Notes under the pieces: generated by a model
Told to the model about the DNA's origin: nothing
Seen by the model: only the letters and a program-made list of their open reading frames with translations
Database searches by the model: none
Origin: an uncultured Desulfobacterales bacterium
Lineage (GTDB): Bacteria > Desulfobacterota > DSM-4660 > Desulfatiglandales > HGW-15
Length of the DNA: 64,000 bases
Assembly: GCA_964647905.1 (NCBI GenBank)
Contig: CAZYJR010000006.1
Coordinates: forward strand, 70,935 to 134,934
Direction: 5' to 3'
Part shown: positions 2,432-52,693 of the stretch, piece after piece
Numbering within the stretch: the stretch's first letter is position 1
Layout of the letters: each line of letters begins with the position of its first letter
Program-made: the position numbers and the translations under genes

Positions 2432-3946
2432 TCACTCCTTCTCCTCTTCCAGCCCCAGGATGCGGGCGATCTCGGCCGCGGTCTCCTTGACGAACCGCTC
2501 CAGGTCCCCTCCCTCCAGGGGGCTCCCGGGCTCCGGGACCCGCTCCAGAGAGGCGGGCCGCACCACGGTGGGGGCGTTCTTCAGTTCGGGCCTGGGCCTG
2601 ATCCCGAAGGCCGGGTCAAAGGCGTCCTCGAAGTACATGTCCTGGAACCCGAGGAACTTGAGCATGTGGGCGGTGGAGTCCAGGACGCCGGTCTCGTCGC
2701 ACCCCACCAGGCCCTGCTCCACGGCCCGGGCGAAACCGGCCATGGACTCGCCGCCCTGGGTGCAGGCTATGTTGCCGTTTCGGTTGGCTATGATCATGGA
2801 GTCCATGATCTCCTGCTCCGAGACCCTGACCACGAACACGCGCCTGCCGCCCGCGACCCGCTCGTAGCGGCCGACCAGGTCCACCACCCTGGGCATGGAG
2901 ACCGGGTTGCCGATCATGGCCGCCTGGGCCACGCTGGGGCGGACGCTCACCGGCCTGAACTCACGCCTCCCGGGCTCCTCCTCCGTGTAATACCTGAAGA
3001 CCGGGTCGGCGTGCTCGGACTGGACTCCCACCACCTTGGGGAGCCCGGAGATGATCCCAAGCTCCCGGAACTTGAGGAACCCCTCCAGGACCGCGGTGAT
3101 GTTCCCGGCGTTGCCTATGGGGAGCACCACCACCTTGTCCTCCACCTCATAGTCGAAGTCCTGGGCTGTCTCGAACGAGAAGGACTCCTGCCCCAGGATG
3201 CGCCAACTGTTCTTGGAGTTCAAGAGAGCCACGTGGTAGCGGTCCGCCAGGGTCTCCACCACCTTCATGCAGTCGTCGAACACGCCCGGGATCTCCAGCA
3301 CGCGGGCCCCGCTTCCCAGGGGTTGGCCCAACTGCTGCGGGGTCACCTTCCCGTGGGGCAGGAGCACGGCCGACTTGAGGAACTCCTCCAGGTACGAGGC
3401 GTAAAGGGCCGCAGAGGCCGAGGTGTCCCCGGTGGAGGCGCAGATGGAAAGGAGGCTCTTCACCCCCTGCTCGGCCGCGTAATGGTTGAGGAAGCTCAAG
3501 GCGCACGCCATTCCCCTGTCCTTGAAGGATGCGCTGGGGTTGAGGCCGTCGTTCTTGAAGTAGAAGTCGCGGCCCAGCTCGCCCCTAAGGCGTGGGTTGG
3601 CCCTCACCACCGGTGTGTGTCCCTCGCCCAAATAGACTATGCGCTCCAGGGGTATCACCGGCGCGATGAACTCGTAGTACCTGAAGACCCCCTTCAGAGA
3701 CTGGATGTTGAGCATGCGGCGGTAGTCCAGGATCCGCCTCCAGTCCTCCGACGGGGTCTCGGCCAGCGCGGGGAAACCGGGGTCCCGGAGCATGAGGACG
3801 CTCCCGCATTCGGGACAGGTGTAGAGGAGCCTTTCCGTGCCGGACTCCCGGCCGCACCCCAGGCAGTGGTACACCATCTCCCCCCGGGGCTCGGGCACCA
3901 GCCCGGGGCGTATCTCTTCAGGGAAGTCTTGGAGTTTCATAATCAT
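2432..3946 (-). CDS. thrC: threonine synthase (long form with N-terminal zinc ribbon)
   Basis: 504 aa. CLGCG..CPECG ribbon at the N-terminus. PLP-lysine motif NPSASFKDRGMA and the GEGHTPVV substrate-loop region are present. Confidence 0.85.
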   Translation of the reverse strand: MIMKLQDFPEEIRPGLVPEPRGEMVYHCLGCGRESGTERLLYTCPECGSVLMLRDPGFPALAETPSEDWRRILDYRRMLNIQSLKGVFRYYEFIAPVIPLERIVYLGEGHTPVVRANPRLRGELGRDFYFKNDGLNPSASFKDRGMACALSFLNHYAAEQGVKSLLSICASTGDTSASAALYASYLEEFLKSAVLLPHGKVTPQQLGQPLGSGARVLEIPGVFDDCMKVVETLADRYHVALLNSKNSWRILGQESFSFETAQDFDYEVEDKVVVLPIGNAGNITAVLEGFLKFRELGIISGLPKVVGVQSEHADPVFRYYTEEEPGRREFRPVSVRPSVAQAAMIGNPVSMPRVVDLVGRYERVAGGRRVFVVRVSEQEIMDSMIIANRNGNIACTQGGESMAGFARAVEQGLVGCDETGVLDSTAHMLKFLGFQDMYFEDAFDPAFGIRPRPELKNAPTVVRPASLERVPEPGSPLEGGDLERFVKETAAEIARILGLEEEKE

Positions 3947-12457: not shown

Positions 12458-13279
12458 ATGACCAATTCGACCGGCCGGACACGGAATCAATCGGAACTGC
12501 GGGATGACCTGGAGAACAGGCTCGCCGAGCTCCAGAAGATGGAGGCGGTGGCCGCCCGGGTGGCCGGCATGGCCCACAACCTGAGCGGCCCGTTGAGCTC
12601 CATCAGGGGGACCGCCGAGCTGAGCGAGTCCCTGCTGCTGGAATCCGACCCGGCGGCCGCGGCCGGGCATGAGATCCGCTCCCTGCTCCTGGAGAACATG
12701 CGCCGGATCATTGAAAACGCCGACCACATAAAGGAGATAATAGACTCCATCCTGATCAGGATAAAGAGCGACCAAGTAAGTGCCCACCAGCCCCTGGACA
12801 TAAACCGGATCCTGGAGAACGAGCTGCGGATCCTGGAAAACGACCTCTTTTTCAAGCACCGGGTGGCAAAGGAGATACGCATGGATCCCGGGCTGCCCGA
12901 GTTCAACGGGGTCTACAGCGACATCTCCCAGTGCTTTGACAACCTGCTCAAGAACGCCTCGGAGGCCCTCAAGGGAGCGGAAAAACCGCGCTTGACCGTG
13001 GAGACCGGCCGCGGCCCAGGATGCATCGAGGTCTTGATCCGGGACAACGGGGGCGGCATACCCCCGGAGATCAGGGAGCGGATATTCGAGCCCTTCTTTT
13101 CCACCAAGCGCCTGGATACCGCCGGGGGCGGCATGAGCGGTTGCGGGCTGGGGCTCTATACGGTAAAGCGCATACTGGCCCCTTACGGGGCCGGGCTGGA
13201 GCTGCAAAGCGCCGGAGGGGAGACCGAGTTCAAGGTGCGTCTCCCCTTGGGAAAGCCGGACGACCGGGCCGGGGACTGA
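12458..13279 (+). CDS. cytoplasmic sensor histidine kinase (HisKA-like plus HATPase_c)
   Basis: Start moved to ATG 12458; the upstream part of the track ORF is antisense shadow over pgi. H-box MAHNLSGPLSSI, N-box NLLKNASEAL, G1 IRDNGGGIP, G2 GCGLGL. Confidence 0.75.
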   Translation: MTNSTGRTRNQSELRDDLENRLAELQKMEAVAARVAGMAHNLSGPLSSIRGTAELSESLLLESDPAAAAGHEIRSLLLENMRRIIENADHIKEIIDSILIRIKSDQVSAHQPLDINRILENELRILENDLFFKHRVAKEIRMDPGLPEFNGVYSDISQCFDNLLKNASEALKGAEKPRLTVETGRGPGCIEVLIRDNGGGIPPEIRERIFEPFFSTKRLDTAGGGMSGCGLGLYTVKRILAPYGAGLELQSAGGETEFKVRLPLGKPDDRAGD

Positions 13280-15417: not shown

Positions 15418-15876
15418 ATGCGCGGGTTCACCCTGACCGAGCTGATCGTGGTGGTGGCGGTGGTGGCCTTCCTGGCCGTACTGGCTGTGCCGGTTTTCTC
15501 GGTATGGCTTCCCGGCTACAAGCTCAAGAGCGTGGCCCAGGACCTCTACTCCAACATGCAGGCGGCCAAGCTGAGGGCCATAAAGGAGAGCGTCACCTCG
15601 GGCGTAAGCTTTTATGCGGAGCCGGACCGCTACGTCTTCAGCCTTTCCGGAGTCACCCGCACCGTGACGCTCGCGGATTACGGCTACGGGGTGAACTTCG
15701 ACGGCCCTTCGGGCGAGACCTTTGACACCGCCTATCTGAGCTTCGATCCCAGGGGGTTCAGCAGCGGGGCGAACGCGTATCTTTCCAACGCCGGGGAGAC
15801 CGCCTATTACAGGGTGGGGGCCCTCGGCACGGGGGCGGTGCGGCTGCAGAAGTGGGAAGGAGGGGCATGGCAGTGA
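15418..15876 (+). CDS. type IV minor pilin, GspH/FimT-like (prepilin N-terminus)
   Basis: MRGFTLTELIVVVAVVAFLAVLAVP is a class III signal (G/F cleavage, Glu+5). Start set at ATG 15418. Confidence 0.75.
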   Translation: MRGFTLTELIVVVAVVAFLAVLAVPVFSVWLPGYKLKSVAQDLYSNMQAAKLRAIKESVTSGVSFYAEPDRYVFSLSGVTRTVTLADYGYGVNFDGPSGETFDTAYLSFDPRGFSSGANAYLSNAGETAYYRVGALGTGAVRLQKWEGGAWQ

Positions 15877-39845: not shown

Positions 39846-39923
39846 GTCCCCATCGTCTAGCCAGGTCCAGGACACCGGCCTTTCACGCCGGCGACAGGGG
39901 TTCAAATCCCCTTGGGGACGCCA
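39846..39923 (+). tRNA. tRNA-Glu (anticodon UUC), CCA encoded
   Basis: GTCCCCATCGTCTAGCCAGGTCCAGGACACCGGCCTTTCACGCCGGCGACAGGGGTTCAAATCCCCTTGGGGACGCCA is near-colinear with the classic bacterial tRNA-Glu. Anticodon loop is CTTTCAC. Confidence 0.9.
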
Positions 39924-40012
39924 AATAATTTCAAGGAGTTGCGCGATGTGCAGCCCCTTTTTTATTCCACCCCGTTTCGATTTCCAACCCTATTTCCAAC
40001 CCTGGAAAGGGA

Positions 40013-40041
40013 TTGACACCCAGGCTCAACCGCAGTAGACT
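40013..40041 (+). promoter_or_regulatory. sigma-70-like promoter upstream of the riboswitch
   Basis: TTGACA (40013-40018), a 17-nt spacer, then TAGACT (40036-40041). The riboswitch P1 begins about 10 nt downstream. Confidence 0.45.
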
Positions 40042-40148
40042 CTCTTCAAAATCATGAAGAGTGGCGCGAGGGAACTGGCCCGATGACCGCCCGCCAACCT
40101 GCTCCGCAAGGTGGTAATGCCAGCCCTGCTTCAGGGATCCATGAGGTC
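40042..40148 (+). promoter_or_regulatory. SAM-I (S-box) riboswitch aptamer
   Basis: AUCAUG-AAGAGUGGCGCGAGGGAACUGGCCCGAUGACCGCCCGCCAACC-UGCUCCGCAA-GGUGGUAAUGCCAGCCCUGCUUCAGGGAUC-CAUGA matches the S-box core (AGAG.GG..GAGGGA.UGGCCCGAUGA..CC.GCAACC...GGUGCUAAUUCCAGC). P1 is UCAUG/CAUGA and P4 is CCCUG/CAGGG. Confidence 0.7.
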
Positions 40149-40176
40149 GGCAAATGGCAAACGGAAGCGCCTACAG

Positions 40177-40199
40177 ACCTCCCCATAGCGGGAGGTTTT
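40177..40199 (+). terminator. riboswitch expression-platform terminator
   Basis: ACCTCCC-CATAGC-GGGAGGT followed by TTT. An alternative antiterminator pairs GAGGTC (40143-40148, overlapping the P1 3' strand) with GACCTC (40176-40181). Confidence 0.55.
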
Positions 40200-40381
40200 C
40201 CTGTCTCTGGGGTAGAGCCCCCCCCCTTATAGACCTTCTCAGCATTCCCGGTTACCGCTGGGCTGAATCGAGGGCACCGCCCAATCCCTGGGCATGGACT
40301 CCGGAATCCGGCCGGAGGCAATGAGCATGCTCTCTCCAGCCCTCGCCAATCCGATAACGCTCGCAAAAAGGAGAAGGAAAA

Positions 40382-40801
40382 ATGTTTGATGAAGACCTGG
40401 ATCAAGAAGAGACGAGCTTTGCCTGTGACAGACTGAGCGACGACGTCCTCCAGGAGGAATACAACGAATGGCTCGAGCAGGCATCAGACGAGGAGATCGA
40501 GAAGATGGCCAATAAGGCGGCCGAGGCCCTGATCAGGCGCTTTCCCGAGCTCGGCGGCAATGATGATCGATCTCCGGGGGGTGTATCCGACGAGGATCCT
40601 CCTCCCTATCCTTCCGGAAACTCGGATACGGACGAGGAGCATCAGGAAGAGGACCCGCCGGCCGAGGCCCTTGATGACGACGAGTGGATTGCCTCGATCA
40701 CGGGGCATTTCAGTCTGACCGACACCTTGGCGAGCGATCTCCGCCAGGCCTTCCCCGGCCTCTCCGAGGAGGATCTGAAGAAGTATCTGGACGGCCTATA
40801 A
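40382..40801 (+). CDS. highly acidic hypothetical protein (139 aa)
   Basis: ATG preceded by AAGGAGAAGGAAAA. By hand count 42 of 139 residues are Asp/Glu versus 9 Lys/Arg. No recognisable catalytic motif. Confidence 0.5.
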   Translation: MFDEDLDQEETSFACDRLSDDVLQEEYNEWLEQASDEEIEKMANKAAEALIRRFPELGGNDDRSPGGVSDEDPPPYPSGNSDTDEEHQEEDPPAEALDDDEWIASITGHFSLTDTLASDLRQAFPGLSEEDLKKYLDGL

Positions 40802-41474
40802 TGGGGATCGTGAGGGTGTCCGCATCCTCTAATACGACCCTGAGTGCTTTGGCGCAACTGCTCCTGGCGTAGGGGACGCGGACGCCCTCTCCTATCCAAG
40901 CGGGGCGATTTCCCCTACAGGGTGGCCATCAAACCTTCACTGGGAGGCCGCTGCATCCCGGGAGGGGTGAGAGCTGCATGAGAGGCGATTCTCGGCAGAC
41001 GCTTCCATGGGAACAGGCTCGTTCGCCGGGGGGACAAGGGACGTTTCCATAGTATACTGGTTGCTCTTGTGATTGAATAATCCGGCTCGCAGCCAACTTG
41101 TAGCTTGATTTTGTGATTTTGGGAGGGTAGTATAGCCACCAAACTGCACTTTTTTCTGGGATTCAAATAGGCTTTTTGCCGTCTGTGCGAGGGAGCCATG
41201 TCCCGAGGCGCGCTCCAAGCCCCATTTCTCATGAGAGAGGTGGGGTTTTTGCTTTTGCGGCCTATATAAAGACATGGCGATTAGGTGAATGGTTGTAGGG
41301 TGAATATGCAATAGGGTGACTTGCCGGCATTCATCACGACTCATTGCTAAATTGGTTTGGGGGTTTCTGCCCGAATAACAAGTTTGTCGGCTTTGGGAAT
41401 TGGTTGTCCGAGTAATCTCCTTTCAAACGGAGTAATCAAGAAGCCACATATTTACTTGTTATCCGGGCTGTTCA

Positions 41475-41891
41475 CTACCCAGAATGACCAGGAAAGCTGG
41501 ATTCAAGTGCTTCTTTCGCTGCTTGCACTAAAAATGAGGATCGGGACATCCCGTGTTTTTTTGCCGCGGCATCGATCTGCTTCAGAGTCATTTCAGGCAG
41601 CGTAATATTCACACGTACCGTCCTAGGCTTTGCACCAGGGACCGAAACTACTAGATAGGCGGTCGCATCGGCATAATCTGAATCCGCCATGATATCTTCC
41701 AAGCGGGAGGGGGTTGGCAATTGCTCTCCATCCTCCAGCAAACCTTGAATATGAAGGGACAAGGCATCTTGCGCCATATCCTTGGCTTCGTCAATGTCCT
41801 TCCCGGCCGTGATGCACCCCTGAAAGTCGGGAAATGAGACACCGAAATCGGTCGCGTCCTCTTTGTGGACGACTGCAATAAAATTCGCCAT
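41475..41891 (-). CDS. hicB: HicB-family antitoxin (HicB N-domain plus C-terminal ribbon-helix-helix)
   Basis: MANFIAVVHKEDATDFGVSFPDFQGCITAGKDIDEA..ALSLHI.. is typical of HicB. C-terminal VRVNITLPEMTLKQIDAAAKKHGMSRSSFL is RHH-like. ATG 41891 is preceded by GAGGT. Confidence 0.8.
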   Translation of the reverse strand: MANFIAVVHKEDATDFGVSFPDFQGCITAGKDIDEAKDMAQDALSLHIQGLLEDGEQLPTPSRLEDIMADSDYADATAYLVVSVPGAKPRTVRVNITLPEMTLKQIDAAAKKHGMSRSSFLVQAAKEALESSFPGHSG

Positions 41892-41899
41892 GGCATACC

Positions 41900-42088
41900 T
41901 CAATTGAACTCGATCCCAGATTGGCGTTCTATGCTCTTGAGGGTGCCAACCGGGATATCCTTTTTCGGATGCGGGACCGTGACCCGCCCTTTTCGTTGAG
42001 CGTGGCTGAATTGAAGGTGGCTACCGGACTTAGCCACTTCTTGCCATCCATGCATTTTGAGCGCTTTGATGATCGTCCGGCTGTCCAT
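41900..42088 (-). CDS. hicA: HicA-family mRNA interferase toxin
   Basis: 62 aa. IKALKMHGWQEVAKSGSHLQFSH..GRVTVPHPKKDIPVGTLKSIERQSG matches the HicA/YcfA pattern. It lies directly upstream of hicB. Confidence 0.85.
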   Translation of the reverse strand: MDSRTIIKALKMHGWQEVAKSGSHLQFSHAQRKGRVTVPHPKKDIPVGTLKSIERQSGIEFN

Positions 42089-42090
42089 GG

Positions 42091-42125
42091 TGTGTATTGA
42101 TACACATTTCCCGTTGGTTTGTCAA
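42091..42125 (-). promoter_or_regulatory. possible hicAB promoter with overlapping palindromic operator
   Basis: Minus strand: TTGACA (42125-42120), a 17-nt spacer, then TATCAA (42102-42097). The 16-bp palindrome TGTGTAT-TG-ATACACA (42091-42106) overlaps the -10. The ATG is only about 8 nt downstream, implying a near-leaderless mRNA if this is real. Confidence 0.35.
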
Positions 42126-42306
42126 GCTGAAATGTATCGGATAACATGAGGCTCAAGCGGACGCTCCTTCATCGCGGCCCTCTAGCCTCTGAGTTGAGGT
42201 ATTGCTCTGCAATCCTTCTGATTTTGTTCCCCGCCGATTTTCGAGCTTACGATAAGGATTCTGCATAAAACTCTGCTGGTTTTTTCACCGTCGACATCGC
42301 GCATGA

Positions 42307-42837
42307 TTCCAAAGGCAATACCATATACTAACCAAGATTATCAGCAACGGCCAACCGGGAGCCGCCCGAGCGGCCGTTGACGCAGCCATCGAACTCGTCA
42401 CCCCCCACGAGGGCCGGACCCCCAAAGGGTACCCCGCCGAAGCCGGGCCCCTGGTGGAGCGATACAACCTGACTGAGGTGCCCACGAAGGACTATGCGGA
42501 TTGCACAAGGCAGAACATCCTCGATTCCGATGGTACCGTCATCTACTCGCACGGCGAACTCGGGGGCCAATCAAAGCTCACTGCGGACATGGCCACAGAA
42601 CTCAGGCGGCCCTTCCTTCATATCGACCTCCAGAAGGAGCTGATTGCCGGAGCCGCAAAGGTGCTCTCTGTGTGGACAGAACTCCACAAGATAGCGGTTC
42701 TCAATGTCACGGGACCCACGGCCAGCGAGGACCCTCAGATATACGAGAAGGTGAAAACCGTGATGGAGGTCGCCCTGGTGCTCTTAAGGGGGCAGAAGAG
42801 GTGGCAAGCAATGGAGTCAGGCCATCCTACTCACTGA
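42307..42837 (+). pseudogene. SLOG-fold YpsA-like ('putative molybdenum carrier') gene lacking a canonical start codon
   Basis: The frame is open from 42307. KIISNGQPGAARAAVDAAIELVTPHEGRTPKGYPAEAGPLVERYNLTEVPTKDY..DSDGTVIYS parallels the KIISGGQTGADRAALDAA..GGWCPKGR..Y.L.E family pattern. There is no ATG/GTG/TTG before the internal GTG 42454, and the GGQTGAD loop is degenerate (NGQPGAA). Confidence 0.45.
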
Positions 42838-42996
42838 CCTTATGAACTCGAAGAATCCCACCCATGGAGGATCCGGAAGGAGCAAAGTGGGGGGGCTGCT
42901 TAGTGTCTCATGGCCTCTTTGGGATGGACAAGAAGGCTCTGGAGACATTAAGGTGTCATCCGCATGTGAATATTTCGGGTCCATAAGGAGGGGGGT

Positions 42997-45900
42997 ATGT
43001 CTCTTCCCACGATATTTGATATATGCATGCCGCGACAGGACGTCCTCGACCATTCCTTCACAGAGGCTGACTTTGCCGCTGACTTGGCGGCAGTGCTGCG
43101 AGAAGACGGCCCCGAGGAGTATCGCGACCCGGCCAAGTTTTTCGCCCGCACCTATCCTACCGAGGGCCTCAAGACCTTGCTTCGCAGTGTCTGCTCCCGG
43201 CTGACCGGAGGTGGAGAGAGTATAGCGCCGATCTTCCGCCTGGACACAAACTACGGAGGCGGCAAGACTCACGCCTTGATCGCCCTTGCCCATGCTGCCA
43301 AAGGCATGCAGGGGGTGTCTAACGCCTCAGAGTTCATCGATCCGGCTAAGCTGCCTTCGGGGCCCGTCCGGGTGGCGTCCTTTGACGGCGAGAATGCCGA
43401 CCCTTACAACGGCAATCCGCTTGAGGGGGACCTAAGGGCATACACTCCTTGGGGAGAGATTGCCTATGCGCTTGCCGGCCGAGAGGGCTATGAGAGGGTC
43501 AGGAGGAGCGATGAGGCCAGGGGTGCTCCCGGGGCGGGGACCATCAAGGAGCTTTTCGGGAGCGAGCCCACACTGATTCTTTTGGATGAGCTCTCCGTCT
43601 ACCTGCGGAAGCTCAAGTCGAGCGACATCAGGAGGGATCAGCTCACCGCCTTCCTCACAAGCCTCTTCAAGGCGGTGGAAAGCTTTCCCAGGGCCGCGGT
43701 GGTTTACACCTTGGCCATCGGCAAGGGCGGGGTGGCCACGGATGCCTACCGCCAGGAGAACATGGAGATTGCCGACGCAATGGCCGAGGCGGAAAGCGTA
43801 TCGGCCCGAAAGGCCACCCTGCTTGACCCCACCGAGGAAGACGAGACGGTGAGAGTGCTCCAGCGCCGTCTTTTCGAGCAAGTGGATCAGACCAGAGTGG
43901 ATCAGGTGGTGGAGGCCTTCAAGCGGATATGGGGCCACAACAAGCCCCTGCTGCCCTCTGTCGGGGCGACCGATACGCGCATGGAGGACATGAAAGACGG
44001 CTTCCCCTTCCACCCGGAGCTCATCGCCACCCTCAGGAACAAGACCGCGACCTTGAGCAATTTCCAGCGCGTCCGAGGGATGTTGCGGATCCTGGGGCGC
44101 ACGGTGGGCCGCCTGTGGGCTAAGCGCCCGGGCAATACCTTTGCCATTCATCTTCACCACATTGATCCCGGGTTCGAGCCTATCCGCCAGGAGATCGTAA
44201 CCCGCCTGGGGCAGAGCCATCTCCTGCCTGCCCTGCGGGCCGACGTGGCAGCTGCCGAGGGTGAGCAGCCCTCCCTGGCCGAGCAGCTTGATGCTGACCA
44301 CTACGGCGGCCTTATGCCTTATGCCTCCATGGCGGCCCGCACCATCTTCTTTCACACGCTGGCTTTCAATGACCAGCTCAAGGGGGCCTCGCGAGAGGAG
44401 ATTCGATATTCCATAATCGGCCCGGAGCGCGACATCAGCTTCATTGATGATGCCACAACCCGCTTCATACAGCAGTCCGCTTATCTTGACGACCGGCCCA
44501 ATGTCCCTTTGCGCTTCCAGGCCGAGGCCAACCTGACGCAGATCATCAAGCGCCAGGAAGACAACGTGGACAAGACCGAGGTCCGGGCCCAGCTAAACGA
44601 CCGCATCCGGGATATCTACTGCGGCAAGGTGATCACCTTCAACCCTGTTTCCTTCCCCGGCGGCCCCTATGACGTACCCGATGACACCTCCCAGGGGCGT
44701 CCTTCCCTGGTGGTGATCGGGTATGACGCAGCAGACATATCGGGCCAGACCCTGGAGATCCCAGAGCTGGTGGAGCGCATCTACCGTCACCACGGCTCGG
44801 CCGGGGACATACGGATCAACCGCAACAACCTGGTCTTCCTCCTTGCCGACAGTGACCGAAAGGAACAAATGCGCCGGATGATGCGCCGCCACCTGGCCCT
44901 ACAAGACCTTCTGCGACGAGAGCGCCTGGAGGAACTGGCCGAGCACCAGCAGAACAAGATGCGCGAGTTGGCGAAGCGCTCTGAGCAGGAGCTGGCCCTG
45001 GCCATCCAACAGTGTTACCGCCACGTCCTCTACCCCTCCAAGAACCGGGTGGAGGGTGCAAGGGTGGATCTTGCCCATGCGGCCATAGAGGTCCACACAG
45101 CCTCTCAGACCCCGGGCGACGGGCAGAAGCATGTGATCCAGGTGCTGCGCGACAGTAAGAAGCTGCGCCTGCCGGAAGACGACCCAGACAGCCCGAGCTA
45201 CGTGCGAGACAAGACCCCCTTGAAGAAGGGAGGCCTCACCACCGCCGGGCTCAGGCGGGAGTTTTCCCGCGACCCGGCCTTGCCCATGCTGGTGGGAGAT
45301 GATGTCTTTTTGCGGGGATTGCGCCAGGGAATAGAACAGGGCACATACGTCTACCAGAGCGGCGATCTGATCTGGGCACAGGGGATGCCTCCTGTAGAGA
45401 TGAAGATTGACGAGAACTCCATGGTCTACACCTCTGAGTACTCCAGGGAGCATGGTATTTGGCCGAAGCCCGAGCCTCCTAAGCCCCCGCCCCCCTTTCC
45501 GGAGCCCGGTCCAGCTCCTGGTGCTGAGGAAAAGCCTGGTGTGAAACCCCCGGAGGCAGCCGAGGGAGGCGGTGGGCCTTTTCCCCCTCCTCAGCCCCCG
45601 CCAGTGGGCGATGTCTCGGCCGAAGGGCCGCTCAAGGAAGCCCTGTCCAGCCTGTGGGAAAAGGCGCGCAGCTCCAATATGGGGAACGTGGGGCTCCTCT
45701 CATTGCAGCTCTATGATCACTCGGACGGCTTCAAAGTCATGGTCCTGGCGAGCGGCATCCCCGGTGCCGCCAAGGTGGCCTCCATCAGGGGAGCGTATGA
45801 GACCACTGCCGGGGGTGAGCTCTCACTCGAGTTCAAAGGACCTGTTGACGATGCCCACCCCATAAAGGACTTCCTGGAGCCCCAGCTCAGGGCCGCCAAG

Positions 45901-46050
45901 GAGAAGGATTTCAAGGTGACCATCTCTATCGAATTCAACGACGGCCTGGACCTCTCCGGCGATGAGCCCGAGAAGCTCACAGATCGCTTGGGTAAATTCG
46001 GGAGTGGGGCGGCCTATGTCTCGGCCTCGGCCAAGGGAGGCGGGGCATGA
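42997..46050 (+). CDS. DUF499-type P-loop ATPase (BrxC/PglY-like), 1017 aa
   Basis: AAGGAGGGG SD. Walker A NYGGGKTH (43249-43272) and Walker B LILLDE (43573-43590). Long helical body, a Pro-rich linker (PKPEPPKPPPPFPEPGPAPG..PPPQPPP), and a C-terminal domain of about 150 aa. Confidence 0.85.
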   Translation: MSLPTIFDICMPRQDVLDHSFTEADFAADLAAVLREDGPEEYRDPAKFFARTYPTEGLKTLLRSVCSRLTGGGESIAPIFRLDTNYGGGKTHALIALAHAAKGMQGVSNASEFIDPAKLPSGPVRVASFDGENADPYNGNPLEGDLRAYTPWGEIAYALAGREGYERVRRSDEARGAPGAGTIKELFGSEPTLILLDELSVYLRKLKSSDIRRDQLTAFLTSLFKAVESFPRAAVVYTLAIGKGGVATDAYRQENMEIADAMAEAESVSARKATLLDPTEEDETVRVLQRRLFEQVDQTRVDQVVEAFKRIWGHNKPLLPSVGATDTRMEDMKDGFPFHPELIATLRNKTATLSNFQRVRGMLRILGRTVGRLWAKRPGNTFAIHLHHIDPGFEPIRQEIVTRLGQSHLLPALRADVAAAEGEQPSLAEQLDADHYGGLMPYASMAARTIFFHTLAFNDQLKGASREEIRYSIIGPERDISFIDDATTRFIQQSAYLDDRPNVPLRFQAEANLTQIIKRQEDNVDKTEVRAQLNDRIRDIYCGKVITFNPVSFPGGPYDVPDDTSQGRPSLVVIGYDAADISGQTLEIPELVERIYRHHGSAGDIRINRNNLVFLLADSDRKEQMRRMMRRHLALQDLLRRERLEELAEHQQNKMRELAKRSEQELALAIQQCYRHVLYPSKNRVEGARVDLAHAAIEVHTASQTPGDGQKHVIQVLRDSKKLRLPEDDPDSPSYVRDKTPLKKGGLTTAGLRREFSRDPALPMLVGDDVFLRGLRQGIEQGTYVYQSGDLIWAQGMPPVEMKIDENSMVYTSEYSREHGIWPKPEPPKPPPPFPEPGPAPGAEEKPGVKPPEAAEGGGGPFPPPQPPPVGDVSAEGPLKEALSSLWEKARSSNMGNVGLLSLQLYDHSDGFKVMVLASGIPGAAKVASIRGAYETTAGGELSLEFKGPVDDAHPIKDFLEPQLRAAKEKDFKVTISIEFNDGLDLSGDEPEKLTDRLGKFGSGAAYVSASAKGGGA

Positions 46051-46526
46051 GCCTGGTGGTAAAGCGGGAGCCTGGAACCGCTCCTGTCTACGAGCTCAGG
46101 GTGCGCCGGAACCCCTCGGTCGGTCTGGGCTTGGAGATATGGCAGCGACCCTCGCCCAACTCCCCTCAACTGAAAGAGCCTCTTTATATAGCGGGCCTCA
46201 AGGGGCGCAACCTTTCTCTCGTGGAGCATCGCGTCCTCAGGCAGCTCTCCAAGGCCGGCGTTGACCTGGGCGGGTTGCGGCTTAACCATCGCCGCACCTA
46301 TCCCCTGGATGAAGATCTGGCCCTTTCCCTGGGGCTGATGTTTCGTGCCCTGGCCCCCATGCGGAGCCGCGACAACATGCGCATGGTGGCCGAGGGTATA
46401 GAGGCCATGGGCCGCGAGGAGGCCGCATACTGGCTGGGGATGGCCATGCATCGCAAGTACCCGCGCCGAGTACTGATGGCCCTTAGGTTCCTGCTGATCG
46501 ACCCCAAACAGAAGAAACGGACTTGA
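46047..46526 (+). CDS. small basic protein of unknown function, translationally coupled within the operon
   Basis: 159 aa. Its ATG overlaps the upstream stop (ATGA), and its stop lies 1 nt before the next ATG. Arg/Lys-rich, with no catalytic motif recognised. Confidence 0.7.
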   Translation: MSLVVKREPGTAPVYELRVRRNPSVGLGLEIWQRPSPNSPQLKEPLYIAGLKGRNLSLVEHRVLRQLSKAGVDLGGLRLNHRRTYPLDEDLALSLGLMFRALAPMRSRDNMRMVAEGIEAMGREEAAYWLGMAMHRKYPRRVLMALRFLLIDPKQKKRT

Positions 46527-46527
46527 G

Positions 46528-49473
46528 ATGACCGAGCGCCTTATAGAGAAGTGGCTGCCCATTGCTGAGTTGGGTGAAGAGAGCATACGGGAGCGTCGCT
46601 CGATGACAGCCCTCCCACCTACTTACTACCTCCACGTATGGTGGGCGCGACGGCCCCTGGTGGCCTCGCGCGCGGCGGTCTTGGCCTCGGTGCTGCCGGC
46701 CGATGCCGACCAGGACAGGTTTATGCACGCTCTGGGGATTCATGGGGATCCGATCAAGACCAAGCGACAGCTTGAACACGCCAAGAGGACTGGAGAAAAC
46801 CTTGGCCTCAACCCGTATGGTTACAAACGTGCCTTCCAATACCATCCAGACAAGGATGAGAAGGAGTGGATCAAGTACGAGACAGGGCGACTAGGTCTCC
46901 AGGACCTCCTAGTGCTTGATCCCACTGCCGGTGGGGGCAGTATTCCTTTCGAATCAACGCGCTTAGGAATCGCCAGCTTGGCCAACGACCTCAACCCGGT
47001 GGCCGGGCTTGTTTTAAGGGCAACTATCGAAGCGCCCATGCGCCATGGCCTTGATGTGCTCTACCAGTTCAATCGCCTTTCTAAGCGCTTCTTAGAATTG
47101 GCTGAGCCTAGATTCCGGGGTGTATTTCCGCCAGAGCCCGAAGATGCCCAAGTGCTTGGCTACCTCTGGAGCCGCACAATAACCTGTCCTTACTGCGACG
47201 GCCTTATCCCGCTTTCTCCCAACTGGCGTCTTGCTCCGGACGGCACCGGCGTGCGCTTGCACCCGAGCACCGGTCCTGGCGAGCGGCGTTGCTCCTTCGA
47301 GATCGTCAAGAAGGCCGAAGAGCAGTCGGAGGGGACCGTCACCGGCGGCAATGCCACATGCCCCTTCCCCGATTGCGGCCGTGTGGTGGACGGCTCCGAG
47401 GTCAAGCGGCAAGCCCAGGCCGGGGGTATGGGCGAGCAGCTCTATGCCGTCGTCTACAAGAAGCGGGTGGAGACCCGTACCAAGAACGGAAAGGTCCGCG
47501 AGAAGTGGGTGCGGGGCTACCGGGCCCCTCGGGAGGAGGACGACAACTCAGATGCGATTAGGAAGGTCCTGGCCCAGAAGCTGCCCGAGTGGGAGGCCCT
47601 GGATATGGTGCCAACTGAGACATACAACTATATGTACTCTGACCGCTCCAAGGTGTATGGAGTGGATTTTTGGCGCGACCTCTTTTCCCCCCGCCAGCTC
47701 CTGGGCCACTGCACCAGTGTGGAGGTCTACCGCGAACTCCTGGAGAAGGCCACGGCCGAGGCCGGGGGCGAGCTACCAGAAGCGACCAAGGCCGCCTTAG
47801 GGTATTTGGCTTTGGGGTTGGATAAGCTCAGAGACTACAACTCCCGTATGACTCGCTGGCACAGCTCCCGACAGGTGATGGTGAACACTTTCGACAGGCA
47901 TGATTTCTCATTCAAGTGGTCTTACGCCGAGATGGCTCCCCTCATAGTAGGCTTGGGCTATGACTGGGCCCTGGAGCAGACGGCCAAGTGTATAGCCGAG
48001 CTGGTGGAACTGGCCCGTCCTGATATAGACGTAAAGAAGGCCCTCAAGCACCCCGACCAGGTCTCCATGCCCAACGGCAACTTCTCACCCCCTCACGTCA
48101 CCGTGACGTGCAAGTCAGCCGACGGCCTGGACCACCTTGGTGATGCCTCGGTGGACGTGGTGGTCATGGACCCCCCTTACTACGACAACGTGATGTACGC
48201 CGAGCTGTCCGATTTTTTCTACGTATGGCTCAAGCGCACCGCCGGATATGTTTACCCCGAGTTCTTCCGGAGGCCGCTGACCGACAAGGAACAGGAGGCC
48301 GTGGCCAACCCGGCCCACTTCAGGGGGCAAAAGGGGGCCAAGATGCTCGCTTACAAGGAGTACCGCGACCGCATGGCCGCGATCTTCTCCGAGAGCAGGC
48401 GGGTGCTCAAGCCCGCCGGTGTCATGACCCTTATGTTCACCCACAAGGCGACCGGCGCATGGGACGCCCTTACCACCGGACTCATGGAGGCGGGCTTTGT
48501 GATAACCGCCAGTTGGCCTGTAAACACAGAGGCTGAAGGGTCCATGCACATCAAGGACAAGTCTGCTGCAAACAGCACGGTCTTCCTGGTCTGCCGCCCG
48601 CGCCCGGAGCGGGCCGATGACGTCGATGTCCCCTACTGGGAAGACCTGGAGCCCAGAGTGAGAACAGCCGTACGCGGGCGCATCAAGGACTTTCAGGGGG
48701 CCGGCATCCGGGGTGTGGATCTATATCTCTCGGCATTCGGTCCCGCTCTCCAGGAGTTCTCTCGGCACTGGCCCGTCAAGAGGGGTACTCCAAGGGAGCG
48801 TCCTGCCGATCTTCAGCGCAAGAGACAGCTTGAGTTTCTCGAAGAGGAGTTCGACCCCTATGTCGCCACCCCGGAGGACGCCCTGGACGCAGCCCGGCGT
48901 GAGGTCAAACGCTGGCGGCTCGAGCAGTTGACCAACGTCCAGCGCCGGGGAGAGCTTGATCCCCTTACGGAGTGGTTTGTGCTGGCCTGGGACGCCTTCA
49001 AGGCCCCTCAGTTCCCATATGATGAAGCCCTGCGCCTGGCCCGGGCCGTAGGGGTGGATATGGACACGCAGGTCATAAAGACCCTGGCAGGGAAGAAGAC
49101 GAGCTCTGTAATTATGTGGGACGCCTCGACCCGTGCGGCAAAGGGCGCCCTGGGGCCGGCAGACGGCAGCCGCTCCATGCTGGACGCCCTTCACCACGCG
49201 GCTCATATGGCCCGGACCCGCACCTTGAATGCAGCCAAAGATCTGATCGACCAGACCGGATTGGCGGCCGAGCCCCGCTTTCTCACGGCGCTGGAGGCGG
49301 TTCTGGAGGTGCTGCCGCCTTCTCGGGCCTATACAGGCCTGGACCCTGCCAGGGCCGCCGAGCCGGCCGCGAGCGACTTCGAGGCCTTGGAGAGCCTGCG
49401 CCGCCTGGCCTTCAGTGAGGAGGTGGATGAGCCACAGCAGCTCTCCTTCTTGAGGGAAGAAGGGAGAGCCTAA
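46528..49473 (+). CDS. DUF1156-type DNA methyltransferase (DPPY; N6-adenine or N4-cytosine class) with zinc ribbons
   Basis: 981 aa. N-terminus WLPIAELGEESIRER..TYYLHVWWARRP (DUF1156 signature). Motif I VLDPTAGGGSIPFES. Cys pairs CPYCDG and CPFPDCG. Motif IV VVVMDPPYY (DPPY at 48169-48180). Confidence 0.9.
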   Translation: MTERLIEKWLPIAELGEESIRERRSMTALPPTYYLHVWWARRPLVASRAAVLASVLPADADQDRFMHALGIHGDPIKTKRQLEHAKRTGENLGLNPYGYKRAFQYHPDKDEKEWIKYETGRLGLQDLLVLDPTAGGGSIPFESTRLGIASLANDLNPVAGLVLRATIEAPMRHGLDVLYQFNRLSKRFLELAEPRFRGVFPPEPEDAQVLGYLWSRTITCPYCDGLIPLSPNWRLAPDGTGVRLHPSTGPGERRCSFEIVKKAEEQSEGTVTGGNATCPFPDCGRVVDGSEVKRQAQAGGMGEQLYAVVYKKRVETRTKNGKVREKWVRGYRAPREEDDNSDAIRKVLAQKLPEWEALDMVPTETYNYMYSDRSKVYGVDFWRDLFSPRQLLGHCTSVEVYRELLEKATAEAGGELPEATKAALGYLALGLDKLRDYNSRMTRWHSSRQVMVNTFDRHDFSFKWSYAEMAPLIVGLGYDWALEQTAKCIAELVELARPDIDVKKALKHPDQVSMPNGNFSPPHVTVTCKSADGLDHLGDASVDVVVMDPPYYDNVMYAELSDFFYVWLKRTAGYVYPEFFRRPLTDKEQEAVANPAHFRGQKGAKMLAYKEYRDRMAAIFSESRRVLKPAGVMTLMFTHKATGAWDALTTGLMEAGFVITASWPVNTEAEGSMHIKDKSAANSTVFLVCRPRPERADDVDVPYWEDLEPRVRTAVRGRIKDFQGAGIRGVDLYLSAFGPALQEFSRHWPVKRGTPRERPADLQRKRQLEFLEEEFDPYVATPEDALDAARREVKRWRLEQLTNVQRRGELDPLTEWFVLAWDAFKAPQFPYDEALRLARAVGVDMDTQVIKTLAGKKTSSVIMWDASTRAAKGALGPADGSRSMLDALHHAAHMARTRTLNAAKDLIDQTGLAAEPRFLTALEAVLEVLPPSRAYTGLDPARAAEPAASDFEALESLRRLAFSEEVDEPQQLSFLREEGRA

Positions 49474-49489
49474 TGATTTCCGGGGAGGA

Positions 49490-52400
49490 GTGATCGTGGC
49501 CTGCTTGGCCGACCGGAAATGGGAGACCTACTACGCACCTGGTTATGCCGACCTGGTCCGTGACTTCTACGAGCCCGCCCTCGCCTGCGCTGTTCGCTAT
49601 GACCGCTCCACGGGCTACTTCAACGCCCCGGCTCTGGCCTTGGCCATGCGCGGGCTGGAGGGCCTCATTGCCAACCAGGGCCATATGCGGCTGCTGGTGG
49701 GCTGCACCCTGGATCAGGCCGAGGTCGAGGCGATAGAGAAGGGCTATACCCTGAGAGATACGGTGGAAGCCCACCTGCTTGAGATACCCCTGGAGGCGCC
49801 GGACCAGGCCGCCTACGAGGCCCTGGAGCTCCTTGCCTGGATGGTCGCCAAGGGATACCTGGAGGTCAAGGTGGCGGTGCCCTGCGACTCGTCCCGGCGG
49901 CCTTTGCCTTCGGTGGGGATATTCCACGCAAAGGCCGGGATCATTGAAGACAAGGTGGGCGAGAGGCTGGTCTTCAGCGGCAGCATAAACGAGACCGTCT
50001 CCGGGTGGCTGCACAATTACGAGGCCTTTCATGTTTTCACCAGCTGGGAGGGCGGCGAGAAGCATGTAGATGCAGAAGAGCGCGAGTTTCAGGCCCTGTG
50101 GGCGGATAAATCCAAGCATGTTGTGGTTATTGACGTTCCGGCGGCCAAGCGGGACCAGCTGCTCCAGTTCATGCCCAAGGACGACAAGCCCGCCCGCATC
50201 AAGCGGTTGGAGGAGTCTGCCAAGGACAATATGCTTTCGTCTCCTCCGGAGGAAGAGCAGCCTGATCCAGAGCCTCCAGTCTCTGAGGCAAATCCCCGAC
50301 GGGTGGTGTGGTCGTTCCTGCGCATTGCTCCCCGATTGCCCGAGGGCGGTGAGCGCGTGGGAGAGGCTACTTCGGCCGTCACTCCCTGGCCCCACCAGGT
50401 GCGAGCCTTTGAGCGGATGTACCGGAAATGGCCCCCGCGGCTCCTTATAGCCGATGAGGTGGGTCTAGGAAAAACCATCCAGGCGGGCATGCTCCTCAGG
50501 CAGGCCTGGCTGGCCGGGCGGGCAAAGCGGGTGCTTATCCTGGCTCCCAAGGCCCTTCTGGGCCAGTGGCAGATAGAGCTCAGGGAAAAATTCAATCTCA
50601 ACTGGCCGATCTACGACGGCAACCGCCTGACCTGGTGCCAGGCCCCCGGCCTTCGTGGTCCCATCTCCCGCACTGTAACCAGCGAAGCCTGGCACCATGA
50701 GCCCTTTGTCATCACCTCGAGTCAGTTGATGCGCCGACGAGACCGCGCCCAAGAGCTTCTCCATGGAGCCGAGCCCTGGGACCTGGTGGCGCTGGATGAG
50801 GCCCACCACGCCCGCAGACGCGCGGGAGGCCTGGGCCAGGACGACCGGCCCAACCAGCTCCTGCGCCTGATGCGGGAGCTGCGGGACTGTACCCAAGGGC
50901 TGATCCTCCTCACCGCCACCCCCATGCAGGTAAGCCCGGTGGAGGTCTGGGATCTCCTCGACCTCTTGGGACTCCCCCCGGCATGGGAAAAGGAGGCCTT
51001 CCTTAAGTATTTCGAGACAGCGGCCAAGCCCAGCCCTTCTCATGAAGAGATGCGGTACCTTGCAGGTCTCTTTCGTTCTGTTGAGGCCTCCTTCGGTGCG
51101 GTCGCGCCCGAGGAGGCAAAGCTCGTTACCGGAATCGAGAGCAACCTCAAGGTGAAAAAGCTGATCGGGGCGCTCCATGACGAGTCCTCCATACCAATAA
51201 AACAACTGAGCAGCGAAGAGCGAAAGGCCGTCTTGAGGCTTCTCAAGGCCAACACTCCTGTCCGGAGGCTCATCTCCCGCCATACCCGAAGGCTCCTGCG
51301 CCGCTATTATGAGGCCGGCAAGATATCGACCCCTATCCCGGCCCGGGAGGTGGCTGACCGCTTTGTATCGCTCTCCGAACAGGAGGCCCAGGTCTATGCG
51401 GCTATGGAGGATTACATCAGCAGCACCTATAACAACGCCTCCCAGGAACGCCGCACTGCGGTGGGCTTTGTCATGACCGTTTACCGCCGCCGCCTGGCCA
51501 GCAGCTTTTACTCCCTGGCCAACACGCTCAATAAGCGTCTTGCGGCCCTCAAGCCCGGTCCCGCTTCCCTAATGGACCCTGCCCGGATCGAGGAAGATCT
51601 CTCCGATGACGAGGTCCAGCCCGAGATCATGGACGTCGAGACAGCTCAGGAACTGGAGGCCGAGGCCCTCACCGCTGAGGAGATAGGCGATCTCCAGGGC
51701 CTTCTGGAATCGGTGCGCCGCCTGCCCACCGATACCAAGGCCACCGCCCTCCTGGAGGCCGTCAACGAGGTGCGCGCAGACGGCTACAGCCAGGTCATGG
51801 TCTTCACCCAGTACACAGACACCATGGACTTCCTGCGGGAGTTCCTGGTGAAGCATTCTTCCTTGCGGGTCATGTGTTTCTCCGGGAGGGGCGGGGAGGT
51901 ACTTGGCAGCGACAGACGCTGGAATCCGGTCACCCGCGACGAGATCAAGCGGCGCTTCCAGGAGAGGTGGGCCGATATCCTGGTCTGTACCGATGCAGCC
52001 GCCGAGGGCCTGAACTTCCAGTTCTGCGGCGCACTGGTCAACTACGACATGCCCTGGAACCCCATGAAGGTGGAGCAACGCATCGGCCGAATCGACCGTA
52101 TGGGCCAGAAGCACGACAAGGTCAGGATCGTGAATCTGCACTATGAAAACACGGTGGAGACCGATGTCTACCTGGCCCTTCGCGAGCGCATCAACTTGTT
52201 CGAGACCTTTGTGGGCGCGCTCCAGCCCATCCTGAGCCGGCTCCCAAGGGCCATAAGAGACGTGGCATTTACCGGCCGCGACGAGAGGGAACGCGAGAAA
52301 GCCGCCCTGGTGGACGACTTGGCCAGAGAGGCGAAGGAGGCCGAGCAGGCGAGCTTCGACATAGACGCGGTTACCGAGGGCGAGGTGGAGGAGCGCCCCC

Positions 52401-52693
52401 GGCCCCCCGCACTCTACGGCCTTACCGAGTTGGGCCGCATACTGACCCGGCCGGACTTGATGCCGCCCGGATGCGAAGTCAGCCCTGCCGGTACCAAGGA
52501 TCACGCCTATCTCGCCCCGGGCATGGACGCACCGGTACGGGTCACAACAGCCGCCGACTTCTACGAGCAGCACGCAGACAGCGTGGAGCTGTGGTCCCCC
52601 GGATCCCCCCTGTTTCCCGACGTGGCTGAAGAAGGCACAGACGAGAATGTCAATCGGGAGAGATTTCTCATGGTGTTAGGCCAAGATTCTTGA
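49490..52693 (+). CDS. PLD-family nuclease domain fused to an SNF2-family helicase
   Basis: 1067 aa. HKD motif FHAKAGIIEDKVGERLVFSGSINET (His codon at 49925). SNF2 motif I ADEVGLGKT (50453-), motif II LDEAHHARR (50795-), and motif VI QRIGRIDRMGQ. The start may be GTG 49490 or GTG 49496 (GGAGGA upstream). Confidence 0.9.
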   Translation: MIVACLADRKWETYYAPGYADLVRDFYEPALACAVRYDRSTGYFNAPALALAMRGLEGLIANQGHMRLLVGCTLDQAEVEAIEKGYTLRDTVEAHLLEIPLEAPDQAAYEALELLAWMVAKGYLEVKVAVPCDSSRRPLPSVGIFHAKAGIIEDKVGERLVFSGSINETVSGWLHNYEAFHVFTSWEGGEKHVDAEEREFQALWADKSKHVVVIDVPAAKRDQLLQFMPKDDKPARIKRLEESAKDNMLSSPPEEEQPDPEPPVSEANPRRVVWSFLRIAPRLPEGGERVGEATSAVTPWPHQVRAFERMYRKWPPRLLIADEVGLGKTIQAGMLLRQAWLAGRAKRVLILAPKALLGQWQIELREKFNLNWPIYDGNRLTWCQAPGLRGPISRTVTSEAWHHEPFVITSSQLMRRRDRAQELLHGAEPWDLVALDEAHHARRRAGGLGQDDRPNQLLRLMRELRDCTQGLILLTATPMQVSPVEVWDLLDLLGLPPAWEKEAFLKYFETAAKPSPSHEEMRYLAGLFRSVEASFGAVAPEEAKLVTGIESNLKVKKLIGALHDESSIPIKQLSSEERKAVLRLLKANTPVRRLISRHTRRLLRRYYEAGKISTPIPAREVADRFVSLSEQEAQVYAAMEDYISSTYNNASQERRTAVGFVMTVYRRRLASSFYSLANTLNKRLAALKPGPASLMDPARIEEDLSDDEVQPEIMDVETAQELEAEALTAEEIGDLQGLLESVRRLPTDTKATALLEAVNEVRADGYSQVMVFTQYTDTMDFLREFLVKHSSLRVMCFSGRGGEVLGSDRRWNPVTRDEIKRRFQERWADILVCTDAAAEGLNFQFCGALVNYDMPWNPMKVEQRIGRIDRMGQKHDKVRIVNLHYENTVETDVYLALRERINLFETFVGALQPILSRLPRAIRDVAFTGRDEREREKAALVDDLAREAKEAEQASFDIDAVTEGEVEERPRPPALYGLTELGRILTRPDLMPPGCEVSPAGTKDHAYLAPGMDAPVRVTTAADFYEQHADSVELWSPGSPLFPDVAEEGTDENVNRERFLMVLGQDS

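Follow-up and report, generated by a model that had tools for sequence, protein, structure and literature searches.

Here we present a SAM-I (S-adenosylmethionine class I, or S-box) riboswitch identified in a 64,000-nucleotide (nt) stretch of DNA from an uncultured Desulfobacterales bacterium (contig CAZYJR010000006.1, positions 70,935 to 134,934), referred to here as the window. The element, at 40049-40147, is a member of the SAM-I class that sits in horizontally acquired DNA and from whose surroundings the usual regulon is missing; it is an authentic OFF switch whose class is well known and whose mobile deployment is unusual. Analysis of its sequence, together with that of three homologous leaders found elsewhere, leads us to regard it as probably a transcription-termination switch for a 139-amino-acid (aa) acidic open reading frame (ORF), and as one of a small mobile lineage of leaders that stand before varying small ORFs. 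Furthermore, one of the homologous leaders precedes an operon homologous to the Hma defence operon of the window, an arrangement that hints at a SAM sensor in defence and makes that idea testable, short of proving it.

SAM-I riboswitches have been seen as regulators with a housekeeping role in the metabolism of sulfur and methionine, and unknown genes found behind them are routinely assigned to the methionine (Met), cysteine (Cys) or SAM pathways (PMC3766115). The case described here is a canonical SAM-I OFF switch that travels as a promoter-aptamer-terminator module in accessory DNA and that on two occasions lies next to one and the same type of SAM-dependent anti-phage system. Should its link to Hma prove functional, it would be the first example of a riboswitch for a metabolite being coupled to a methylation-based defence island, and SAM depletion as a signal of infection or danger would become directly testable. 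If it does not, riboswitch leaders are still documented as possible mobile cassettes, and annotation of genes by their association with a riboswitch is seen to be potentially misleading.

A cmscan of the whole window against Rfam gave three gathering-level matches, to tRNA-Lys, tRNA-Glu and RF00162 (SAM-I). The last of these covers the full length of the model (positions 1-108 of 108) and scores 60.5 bits against a gathering score of 44.4, with an E value of 1.6e-11 over the whole window and 7.5e-13 over the local region; a permissive rescan of 39900-43000 (E up to 1) added nothing to the known matches. The helices assigned by the alignment are collected in Table 1. Every conserved core position is intact in this match, which lies 16 bits over the gathering score, and the positions that reportedly contact the ligand in the Montange & Batey crystal structure of 2006 (A6, U7, G11, C44, A45, A46, U57, G58, A87 and U88 in Thermoanaerobacter tengcongensis metF numbering, onto which the cmscan alignment was mapped) are all canonical. 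The window aptamer would be expected to bind SAM. One departure from the Rfam consensus was found in P3, where the pair beside the binding pocket is C-G rather than G-C, a compensatory swap.

Table 1. Features of the riboswitch locus and its surroundings in window coordinates
Feature	Position	Strand	Description or basis
tRNA-Glu(UUC)	39846..39923	+	ARAGORN and Rfam; last element common to relatives; left border of accessory region
sigma-70-like promoter TTGACA-17-TAGACT	40013..40041	+	10/12 positions match
SAM-I (S-box) aptamer	40049..40147	+	P1-P4 four-way junction, kink-turn (K-turn) motif, pseudoknot; RF00162
P1, UCAUG/CAUGA	U40052-G40056 / C40140-A40144	+	cmscan alignment
P2	G40061/G40063-G40066 with C40088-C40092; GGG 40070-72 with CCC 40079-81	+	cmscan alignment
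Pseudoknot, P2 loop with joining region J3-4, CUGG/CCAG	40075-78 / 40120-23	+	cmscan alignment
P3	40093-40101 with 40107-40115	+	cmscan alignment
P4, CCCUG/CAGGG	40124-28 / 40132-36	+	cmscan alignment
Predicted antiterminator, GAGGUC/GACCUC	40143-48 / 40176-81 (40143..40181)	+	complementarity read from sequence
Predicted intrinsic terminator	40176..40204	+	stem ACCUCCC/GGGAGGU (40177-83 / 40190-96), loop CAUAGC, tail UUUUCCUGU
GGGG-UAGAG-C9 hairpin	40209..40226	+	directly 3' of terminator; conserved in locus L134 (GGGGTAGATCCCCCCCC)
Remaining 5' untranslated region (UTR), including Shine-Dalgarno sequence (SD; GGAG 40368-71)	40227..40381	+	sequence
Putative orphan acidic protein gene, 139 aa	40382..40801	+	SD and coding-like codon use
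Strong intrinsic terminator	41217..41258	+	14-bp stem and T-rich tail
hicB-hicA toxin-antitoxin pair	41475..42088	-	convergent with acidic ORF; Pfam HicB_lk_antitox 1.5e-35
cpYpsA (SLOG) gene remnant	42333..42837	+	PF12694, 6.6e-27 on 127-aa ORF; directly 5' of HmaC
Hma defence operon	42997..52693	+	HmaC/DUF499 ATPase, DUF7680, HmaB/DUF1156 methyltransferase, PLD-SNF2 helicase; Pfam and PADLOC

Relatives of this leader were sought with a regular-expression (regex) prefilter followed by Rfam confirmation. Using a pattern that combined the SAM-I core with the unusual P3 swap, a scan of metagenomes returned 56 loci, all 20 tested of which score above the RF00162 gathering score; two of the 56, designated L134 and L114, carry close relatives of the window leader. 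A third homologous leader, L139, was found through contigs that encode close HmaC homologs. The three are 84-90% identical to the window over the aligned leader stretch, whereas the first ORFs behind the four leaders are mutually unrelated, with isoelectric points (pI) of 4.05, 4.89, 5.32 and 9.7. Structural conservation of both aptamer and terminator was evident when the four were aligned: standard pairs occupy 94.6% of pair cells, against 31-48% when the partners are slid, and six pairs are changed on both sides, three in P3 (the C-G/G-C swap among them) and three in the terminator. A core block of 47 nt has only two variable positions, each in one leader, across the four contexts. The CUGG/CCAG pseudoknot is invariant in all four leaders, which is compatible with the pairing and gives no covariation.

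The most similar leader is L134, which matches the window at 88 of 99 aptamer positions. Similarity between the two spans the -35 element through the terminator and a GGGG-N5-C8 hairpin and ends just 3' of the latter, so that the corresponding GGGG-UAGAG-C9 hairpin of the window looks as if it marked the junction of the leader module; its counterpart in L134 was noted near 13062-13090 on the minus strand. The L134 terminator stem, ACUUCCU/AGGAGGU, carries compensatory and wobble changes and is followed by U7, its antiterminator is kept as GGGGUC/GACUUC with wobbles, and one C-to-U change in the strand shared by the two alternative helices still pairs with G in both. Behind this leader (L134:10453-12907, minus strand) lie a 148-aa unknown ORF, an ADP-ribosylglycohydrolase (ARH) gene and a weakly ARH-like gene (below the Pfam cutoff), an unexpected cargo for a SAM switch. 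Upstream is the divergent start of an IS630-like transposase, recognised by eye, and further along is a homolog of the helix-turn-helix part of the window resolvase. In L114, 84 of 99 aptamer positions match; the ORF that follows this leader, of 89 aa, is unrelated, and a gene of the phage-integrase family lies 3 kb away. The L139 riboswitch, at 3671-3767, scores 56.2 bits and is 84% identical to window 40049-40168; its P3 pocket pair is the canonical, unswapped G-C, its promoter reads TTGACT-18-TATAAT, and an 8-bp antiterminator (AUGAGGUC/GACCUCAU) is paired with an 11-bp terminator followed by U7. Promoter and terminator were called by scanners in both L134 and L139. The leader was not found in viral contigs, which were scanned with two patterns, or in plasmids. 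We place the window leader in a small lineage of SAM-I leaders, each comprising promoter, aptamer and terminator, that is apparently horizontally mobile; the contexts of the three homologous leaders are of a mobile type.

An earlier note on this DNA, made from the sequence alone, had described a SAM-I riboswitch with a promoter, a terminator/antiterminator pair and a downstream acidic ORF outside Met/Cys/SAM metabolism, and had named the RF00162 score as one check on it. This description held up throughout: the S-box elements and the promoter-like sequence lie where it had placed them, the score exceeds the threshold, the two competing helices are confirmed at the same coordinates, although with a weak U-tract, and the ORF has an SD, belongs to no met family and is an orphan. 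All three homologous leaders keep the -35 TTGAC unchanged, and their -10 elements are conserved as well. G40143 and A40144 are common to the 3' strand of P1 and to the antiterminator, which could be extended by an additional inner GGC/GCC pairing and which is present in the minimum free energy (MFE) fold of the free tail (-12.1 kcal/mol for the isolated region); the isolated terminator hairpin is at about -14.6 kcal/mol.

The sequence suggests the following pathway for termination control by the window leader. With SAM bound, P1 would close and so keep G40143 and A40144 out of antiterminator pairing; the ACCUCCC/GGGAGGU hairpin would form, and RNA polymerase would stop near 40200. When SAM is scarce, GAGGUC would instead pair with GACCUC and prevent the terminator, and read-through would yield a transcript with a 184-nt UTR, the acidic ORF and probably, as its 3' end, the terminator at 41217-41258. 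In its aptamer, K-turn, pseudoknot, contact positions and OFF platform the element shares the organization of known SAM-I riboswitches (RF00162; Bacillus subtilis yitJ/metI and T. tengcongensis metF). Unlike typical members of the class, it has no Met/Cys/SAM metabolism or transport context, lies in accessory DNA and travels with unrelated small ORFs; the C-G pocket pair also sets it apart from the Rfam consensus, to which L139 conforms.

The acidic ORF is the only plausible cis target of the switch. A GGAG SD sits 10 nt 5' of its ATG, and its codon score, 0.415 bits per codon in the reading frame, turns negative in both other frames of that strand; the G+C fractions at the three codon positions, 0.68/0.37/0.71, show a periodicity that matches confident window genes. 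Long other-strand ORFs that overlap or neighbour it fail the codon-statistics test, and a 135-aa minus-strand ORF at 40937-41344, considered as a gene, was rejected as its coding signal is absent. The predicted protein has 42 Asp+Glu (30%), 9 Lys+Arg and a pI of about 4. It matched only itself in 5.8 billion clusters by word-indexed search, and itself and one low-complexity sequence in a full HMMER search of 1.84 billion representatives; no Pfam, PADLOC or PHROG family was found, and an OHCU_decarbox assignment was rejected, since its 17 bits in Pfam are below the cutoff. A single-sequence AlphaFold2 model (predicted local distance difference test, pLDDT, 58) has helices at 20-53 and 99-138 around a Pro/Asp/Glu-rich middle that is predicted to be disordered, and Foldseek with this low-confidence model returned PDB matches only at E above 3. 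Translation of the ORF is predicted from its SD and codon use, and the protein and any function it may have are putative. In the UTR between the leader hairpin and the start codon (40227-40381) there was no Rfam match (E up to 1) and no homology to any fetched locus, and searches of the 184-nt UTR and of 40802-41470 brought up no trace of a further gene or RNA. Also, a promoter-like GGGACA-16-TATACT on one side and the strong terminator on the other enclose about 190 nt rich in A+T (41031-41258, plus strand); this stretch gave no Rfam match, shows no special fold and holds no ORF with a coding signal.

Several observations weigh against a working OFF switch for this ORF. The U-tract of the window, UUUUCCUGU, is the weakest of the four leaders (U7 in L134 and L139, U6 in L114), and the hairpin was left uncalled by a simple terminator scan, unlike its homologs in L134 and L139. 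Just two canonical P1 nucleotides overlap the antiterminator, compared with four or five in L139. Whole-leader MFE folds do not surpass those of shuffled sequences (z -1.2 and -0.27), and folds computed under constraints are equal in energy, so that thermodynamic folding of the whole leader cannot separate the ON from the OFF state. The acidic protein has no homolog among about 15 billion proteins, and conservation therefore cannot vouch for the ORF; in addition, the first ORFs of the four leaders, being unrelated, could be incidental.

The element might on these grounds be a relic or incidental, with an intact aptamer, leaky termination and an ORF that is lineage-specific or spurious, or with a short RNA resembling small regulatory RNAs as its sole product. 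Two U-to-C changes in the window U-tract relative to L134, the absolute orphan status of the ORF, the frequency of spurious long ORFs in GC-rich window DNA, the unrelated ORFs behind the other leaders and a fold no better than shuffles all speak for this. Opposed to it are the complete conserved core and the score of the aptamer, the near-invariance of the 47-nt block in four different contexts, and the SD, ATG and gene-like codon periodicity of the ORF, signals that the neighbouring 135-aa ORF fails to show; we consider this reading quite unlikely. As for the product in trans, SreA and SreB of Listeria monocytogenes are SAM-I riboswitches whose terminated transcripts act in trans, and the short terminated product of the window leader may similarly have a role of its own. 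The comparison is relevant because the ORFs downstream of the four leaders are not conserved, and it differs in that the window leader has no known or predictable trans target.

The position of the switch relative to the core genome was determined from 80 syntenic loci of Desulfatiglandales-type genomes, found via a radical-SAM protein (65-74% aa identity). Upstream in the window are the core genes secA, an M23 peptidase gene, uvrC, chaN, hisD, gcvH, lplA and the radical-SAM gene, followed by tRNA-Lys and tRNA-Glu. Genes 5' of the tRNAs are matched in 27-77 of the 80 loci, most of which keep the order radical-SAM gene, tRNA-Lys, tRNA-Glu. On the other side, 19 window ORFs from the interval 40382-63387 were tested, and none has a match in any of these loci; blastn homology with relatives stops at 39924-40001, directly at the 3' end of tRNA-Glu or shortly beyond it, and G+C content goes from about 0.65 to 0.55-0.62 past 40000. 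No confirmed SAM-I element was found at the syntenic site (regex on all 80 loci, Rfam on seven); regex candidates in L071 and L080 were rejected by Rfam. As the DNA right of tRNA-Glu, riboswitch included, is missing in the 80 relatives, the riboswitch belongs to accessory DNA. Same-species short-read contigs (Logan) break at the tRNA-Glu 3' end, and two contigs end at 41106. There is no second, att-like (attachment-site) copy of the tRNA-Glu 3' end within the window, which places the right end of the island outside it. A tandem repeat, TTTCCAACCCT x2, was noted at 39981-40003 (plus strand), immediately 5' of the riboswitch -35 element, and could be an operator or an att remnant. Foreign-looking DNA past tRNA-Glu was also seen in two relatives: NaphS2 has a phage-type C4 antisense RNA (RF01695) 8 kb past the tRNA (L064:19265-19350, minus strand), and in L023 the 3' 30-mer of tRNA-Glu recurs 4 kb downstream (15439-15468). 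This suggests an integration hot spot.

These data bear on one of two explanations offered in the earlier note, according to which an island insertion had separated the switch from an original chromosomal Met/Cys/SAM gene; it had proposed to look at what follows the riboswitch in related genomes that lack the island. The comparison went against that explanation, since in the relatives the riboswitch itself is absent from the syntenic site. It is true that SAM-I leaders normally precede Met/Cys/SAM genes (PMC3766115) and that the switch stands at the island edge beside a tRNA gene. However, its position is on the island side of the boundary, the window ORFs tested, which extend to 63387, include no recognised Met/Cys gene, and the leader is known from three further places, where small non-met ORFs follow it. 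A displaced met leader is thus highly improbable.

The second explanation in the earlier note was that low SAM serves as a cue for a gene linked to an adjacent SAM-dependent defence system. That such a system is adjacent was borne out by Pfam (DUF499, DUF1156, SNF2, PLDc_2) and PADLOC (HmaC 1.6e-97, HmaB 2.4e-74, PLD_Helicase 3.3e-83, HmaA 8.8e-58). The Hma system has been described as an HmaA Snf2-nuclease helicase, an HmaB DUF1156 methylase and an HmaC DUF499 ATPase, with no riboswitch in the description (PMC11232893). The window operon matches the HmaC, HmaB and helicase models and is collinear with L139, L141 and L142 at 70-77% nt identity; it differs from the described system in carrying DUF7680 and a cpYpsA gene and in the N-terminal PLD domain of its helicase. 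The cpYpsA gene is apparently broken into 25-aa and 127-aa ORFs, the remnant having 70% nt identity to an intact copy (210 aa) that precedes HmaC in L143. Between the acidic ORF and this operon lies hicBA, its hicA assigned from the sequence of a 62-aa ORF only; its low third-position G+C (0.52 and 0.62) would fit a separate insert. Beyond Hma are YgjP, unknown ORFs, a methyltransferase, a resolvase and a NucS-like nuclease.

The window switch cannot drive Hma directly, because a terminator, the convergent hicBA and 2.2 kb intervene and because a promoter-like site precedes cpYpsA-HmaC. The situation in L139 is different. There, the riboswitch, a small basic ORF, a 620-nt spacer and HmaC follow one another on one strand, so that the leader stands 0.9 kb 5' of an Hma operon that shares 77% nucleotide identity with the window operon, the two HmaC proteins being 84% identical; past the riboswitch terminator, simple scans revealed no other sigma-70-like promoter or plus-strand terminator before HmaC. 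Related Hma operons therefore lie downstream of, and on the same strand as, two of the four known leader copies, and leader (84% nt identity) and Hma genes (about 77%) are conserved while the DNA between them is unrelated. HmaB, moreover, is a SAM-dependent methylase.

It could be argued from this that a mobile Hma-type defence island recruited the SAM-I leader lineage as its SAM sensor. L139 would then preserve the ancestral order, in which a small ORF stood between leader and Hma. A fall in SAM, arising from starvation or from a phage SAM lyase, would turn on island-specific small proteins, a small modulator among them, and the L139-type switch may also turn on the Hma operon itself; the window arrangement would later have been split by hicBA and other inserts. 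The acidic product would then modulate the methylation-dependent system, and could act, for example, as a DNA-mimic-like brake on self-restriction when methylation fails. DNA-mimic anti-restriction proteins such as Ocr and ArdA are small and acidic, bind restriction-modification enzymes and have a fold that arrays acidic side chains in the manner of DNA. The window protein shares the small size and extreme acidity of these mimics, a likeness of composition only, with no similarity in sequence or, as far as the low-confidence model shows, in fold.

The distribution of the leader argues against such a functional tie. Of about 13 Hma loci, only 2 have a SAM-I leader nearby, and these belong to a single clade; neither the riboswitch nor the acidic ORF co-occurs with Hma operons in a conserved manner. 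Rfam found no SAM riboswitch at the 11 other Hma loci with upstream DNA (L141, L142, L143, L144, L146-L148, which are viral contigs, L153, L154, L157 and L158). These include L141 and L142, with HmaC 74% identical to the window, and L143, the closest with upstream DNA at 89%, where cpYpsA and two other genes precede HmaC. Conversely, none of the 56 pattern loci carries Hma genes, and the nearest leader, L134, has no Hma gene in its 13.4-kb locus (13 kb downstream and 0.2 kb upstream). With two cases in one Hma clade, a single ancestral arrangement could explain the linkage, and one inherited event would suffice. Nor do the first ORFs correspond, that of L139 coding for a basic protein and that of the window for an unrelated acidic one.

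Of the low-SAM proposal, then, the part that stands is the occurrence of a homologous leader upstream of a homologous Hma operon in L139. What counts against it are the unrelated first ORFs, the eleven Hma loci without a SAM riboswitch, and the terminator, hicBA and cpYpsA remnant that intervene in the window, where Hma has a promoter-like site of its own. In addition, no paper linking SAM riboswitches with restriction-modification or defence was found in the literature searched. On balance we judge recruitment as a SAM sensor, with the L139-type switch acting on Hma and the acidic protein as modulator, to be unlikely, and prefer a mobile OFF switch that serves varying small ORFs. Riboswitch-like control of defence genes does have a precedent in the abiF motif, or RCd22 leader, of Clostridioides difficile, where the AbiF defence gene has a structured 5' leader with premature termination (PMC12373285). 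RCd22 is an unrelated RNA whose ligand is unknown, whereas the RNA described here belongs to the SAM class and its link to defence is hypothetical.

The pattern scan also brought to light other SAM-I aptamers with the C-G P3 swap. These were found in GC-rich contigs from peat and soil (the L083-L138 set), about 10-100 nt before small non-met proteins; examples are L084:5207-5295, L103:541-629, L117:5616-5704, L112 and L123. The cargo is recurrent, comprising an unknown family of about 104-130 aa ('YVERRSDLYRWSLAH') at 17 loci, a Cys-rich family of about 100 aa ('ALSNYVLAMSE') at 9 loci and TY-Chap3 (PF22552) proteins at 5 loci, and the families sometimes share a neighbourhood. SAM_HAT-like genes occur in three of the P3-swap loci and a MetE-like gene in just one. 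Finally, in L135 (1337-1668) a SAM-I aptamer stands 108 nt from two tRNA genes, in divergent orientation, echoing the tRNA adjacency of the window.

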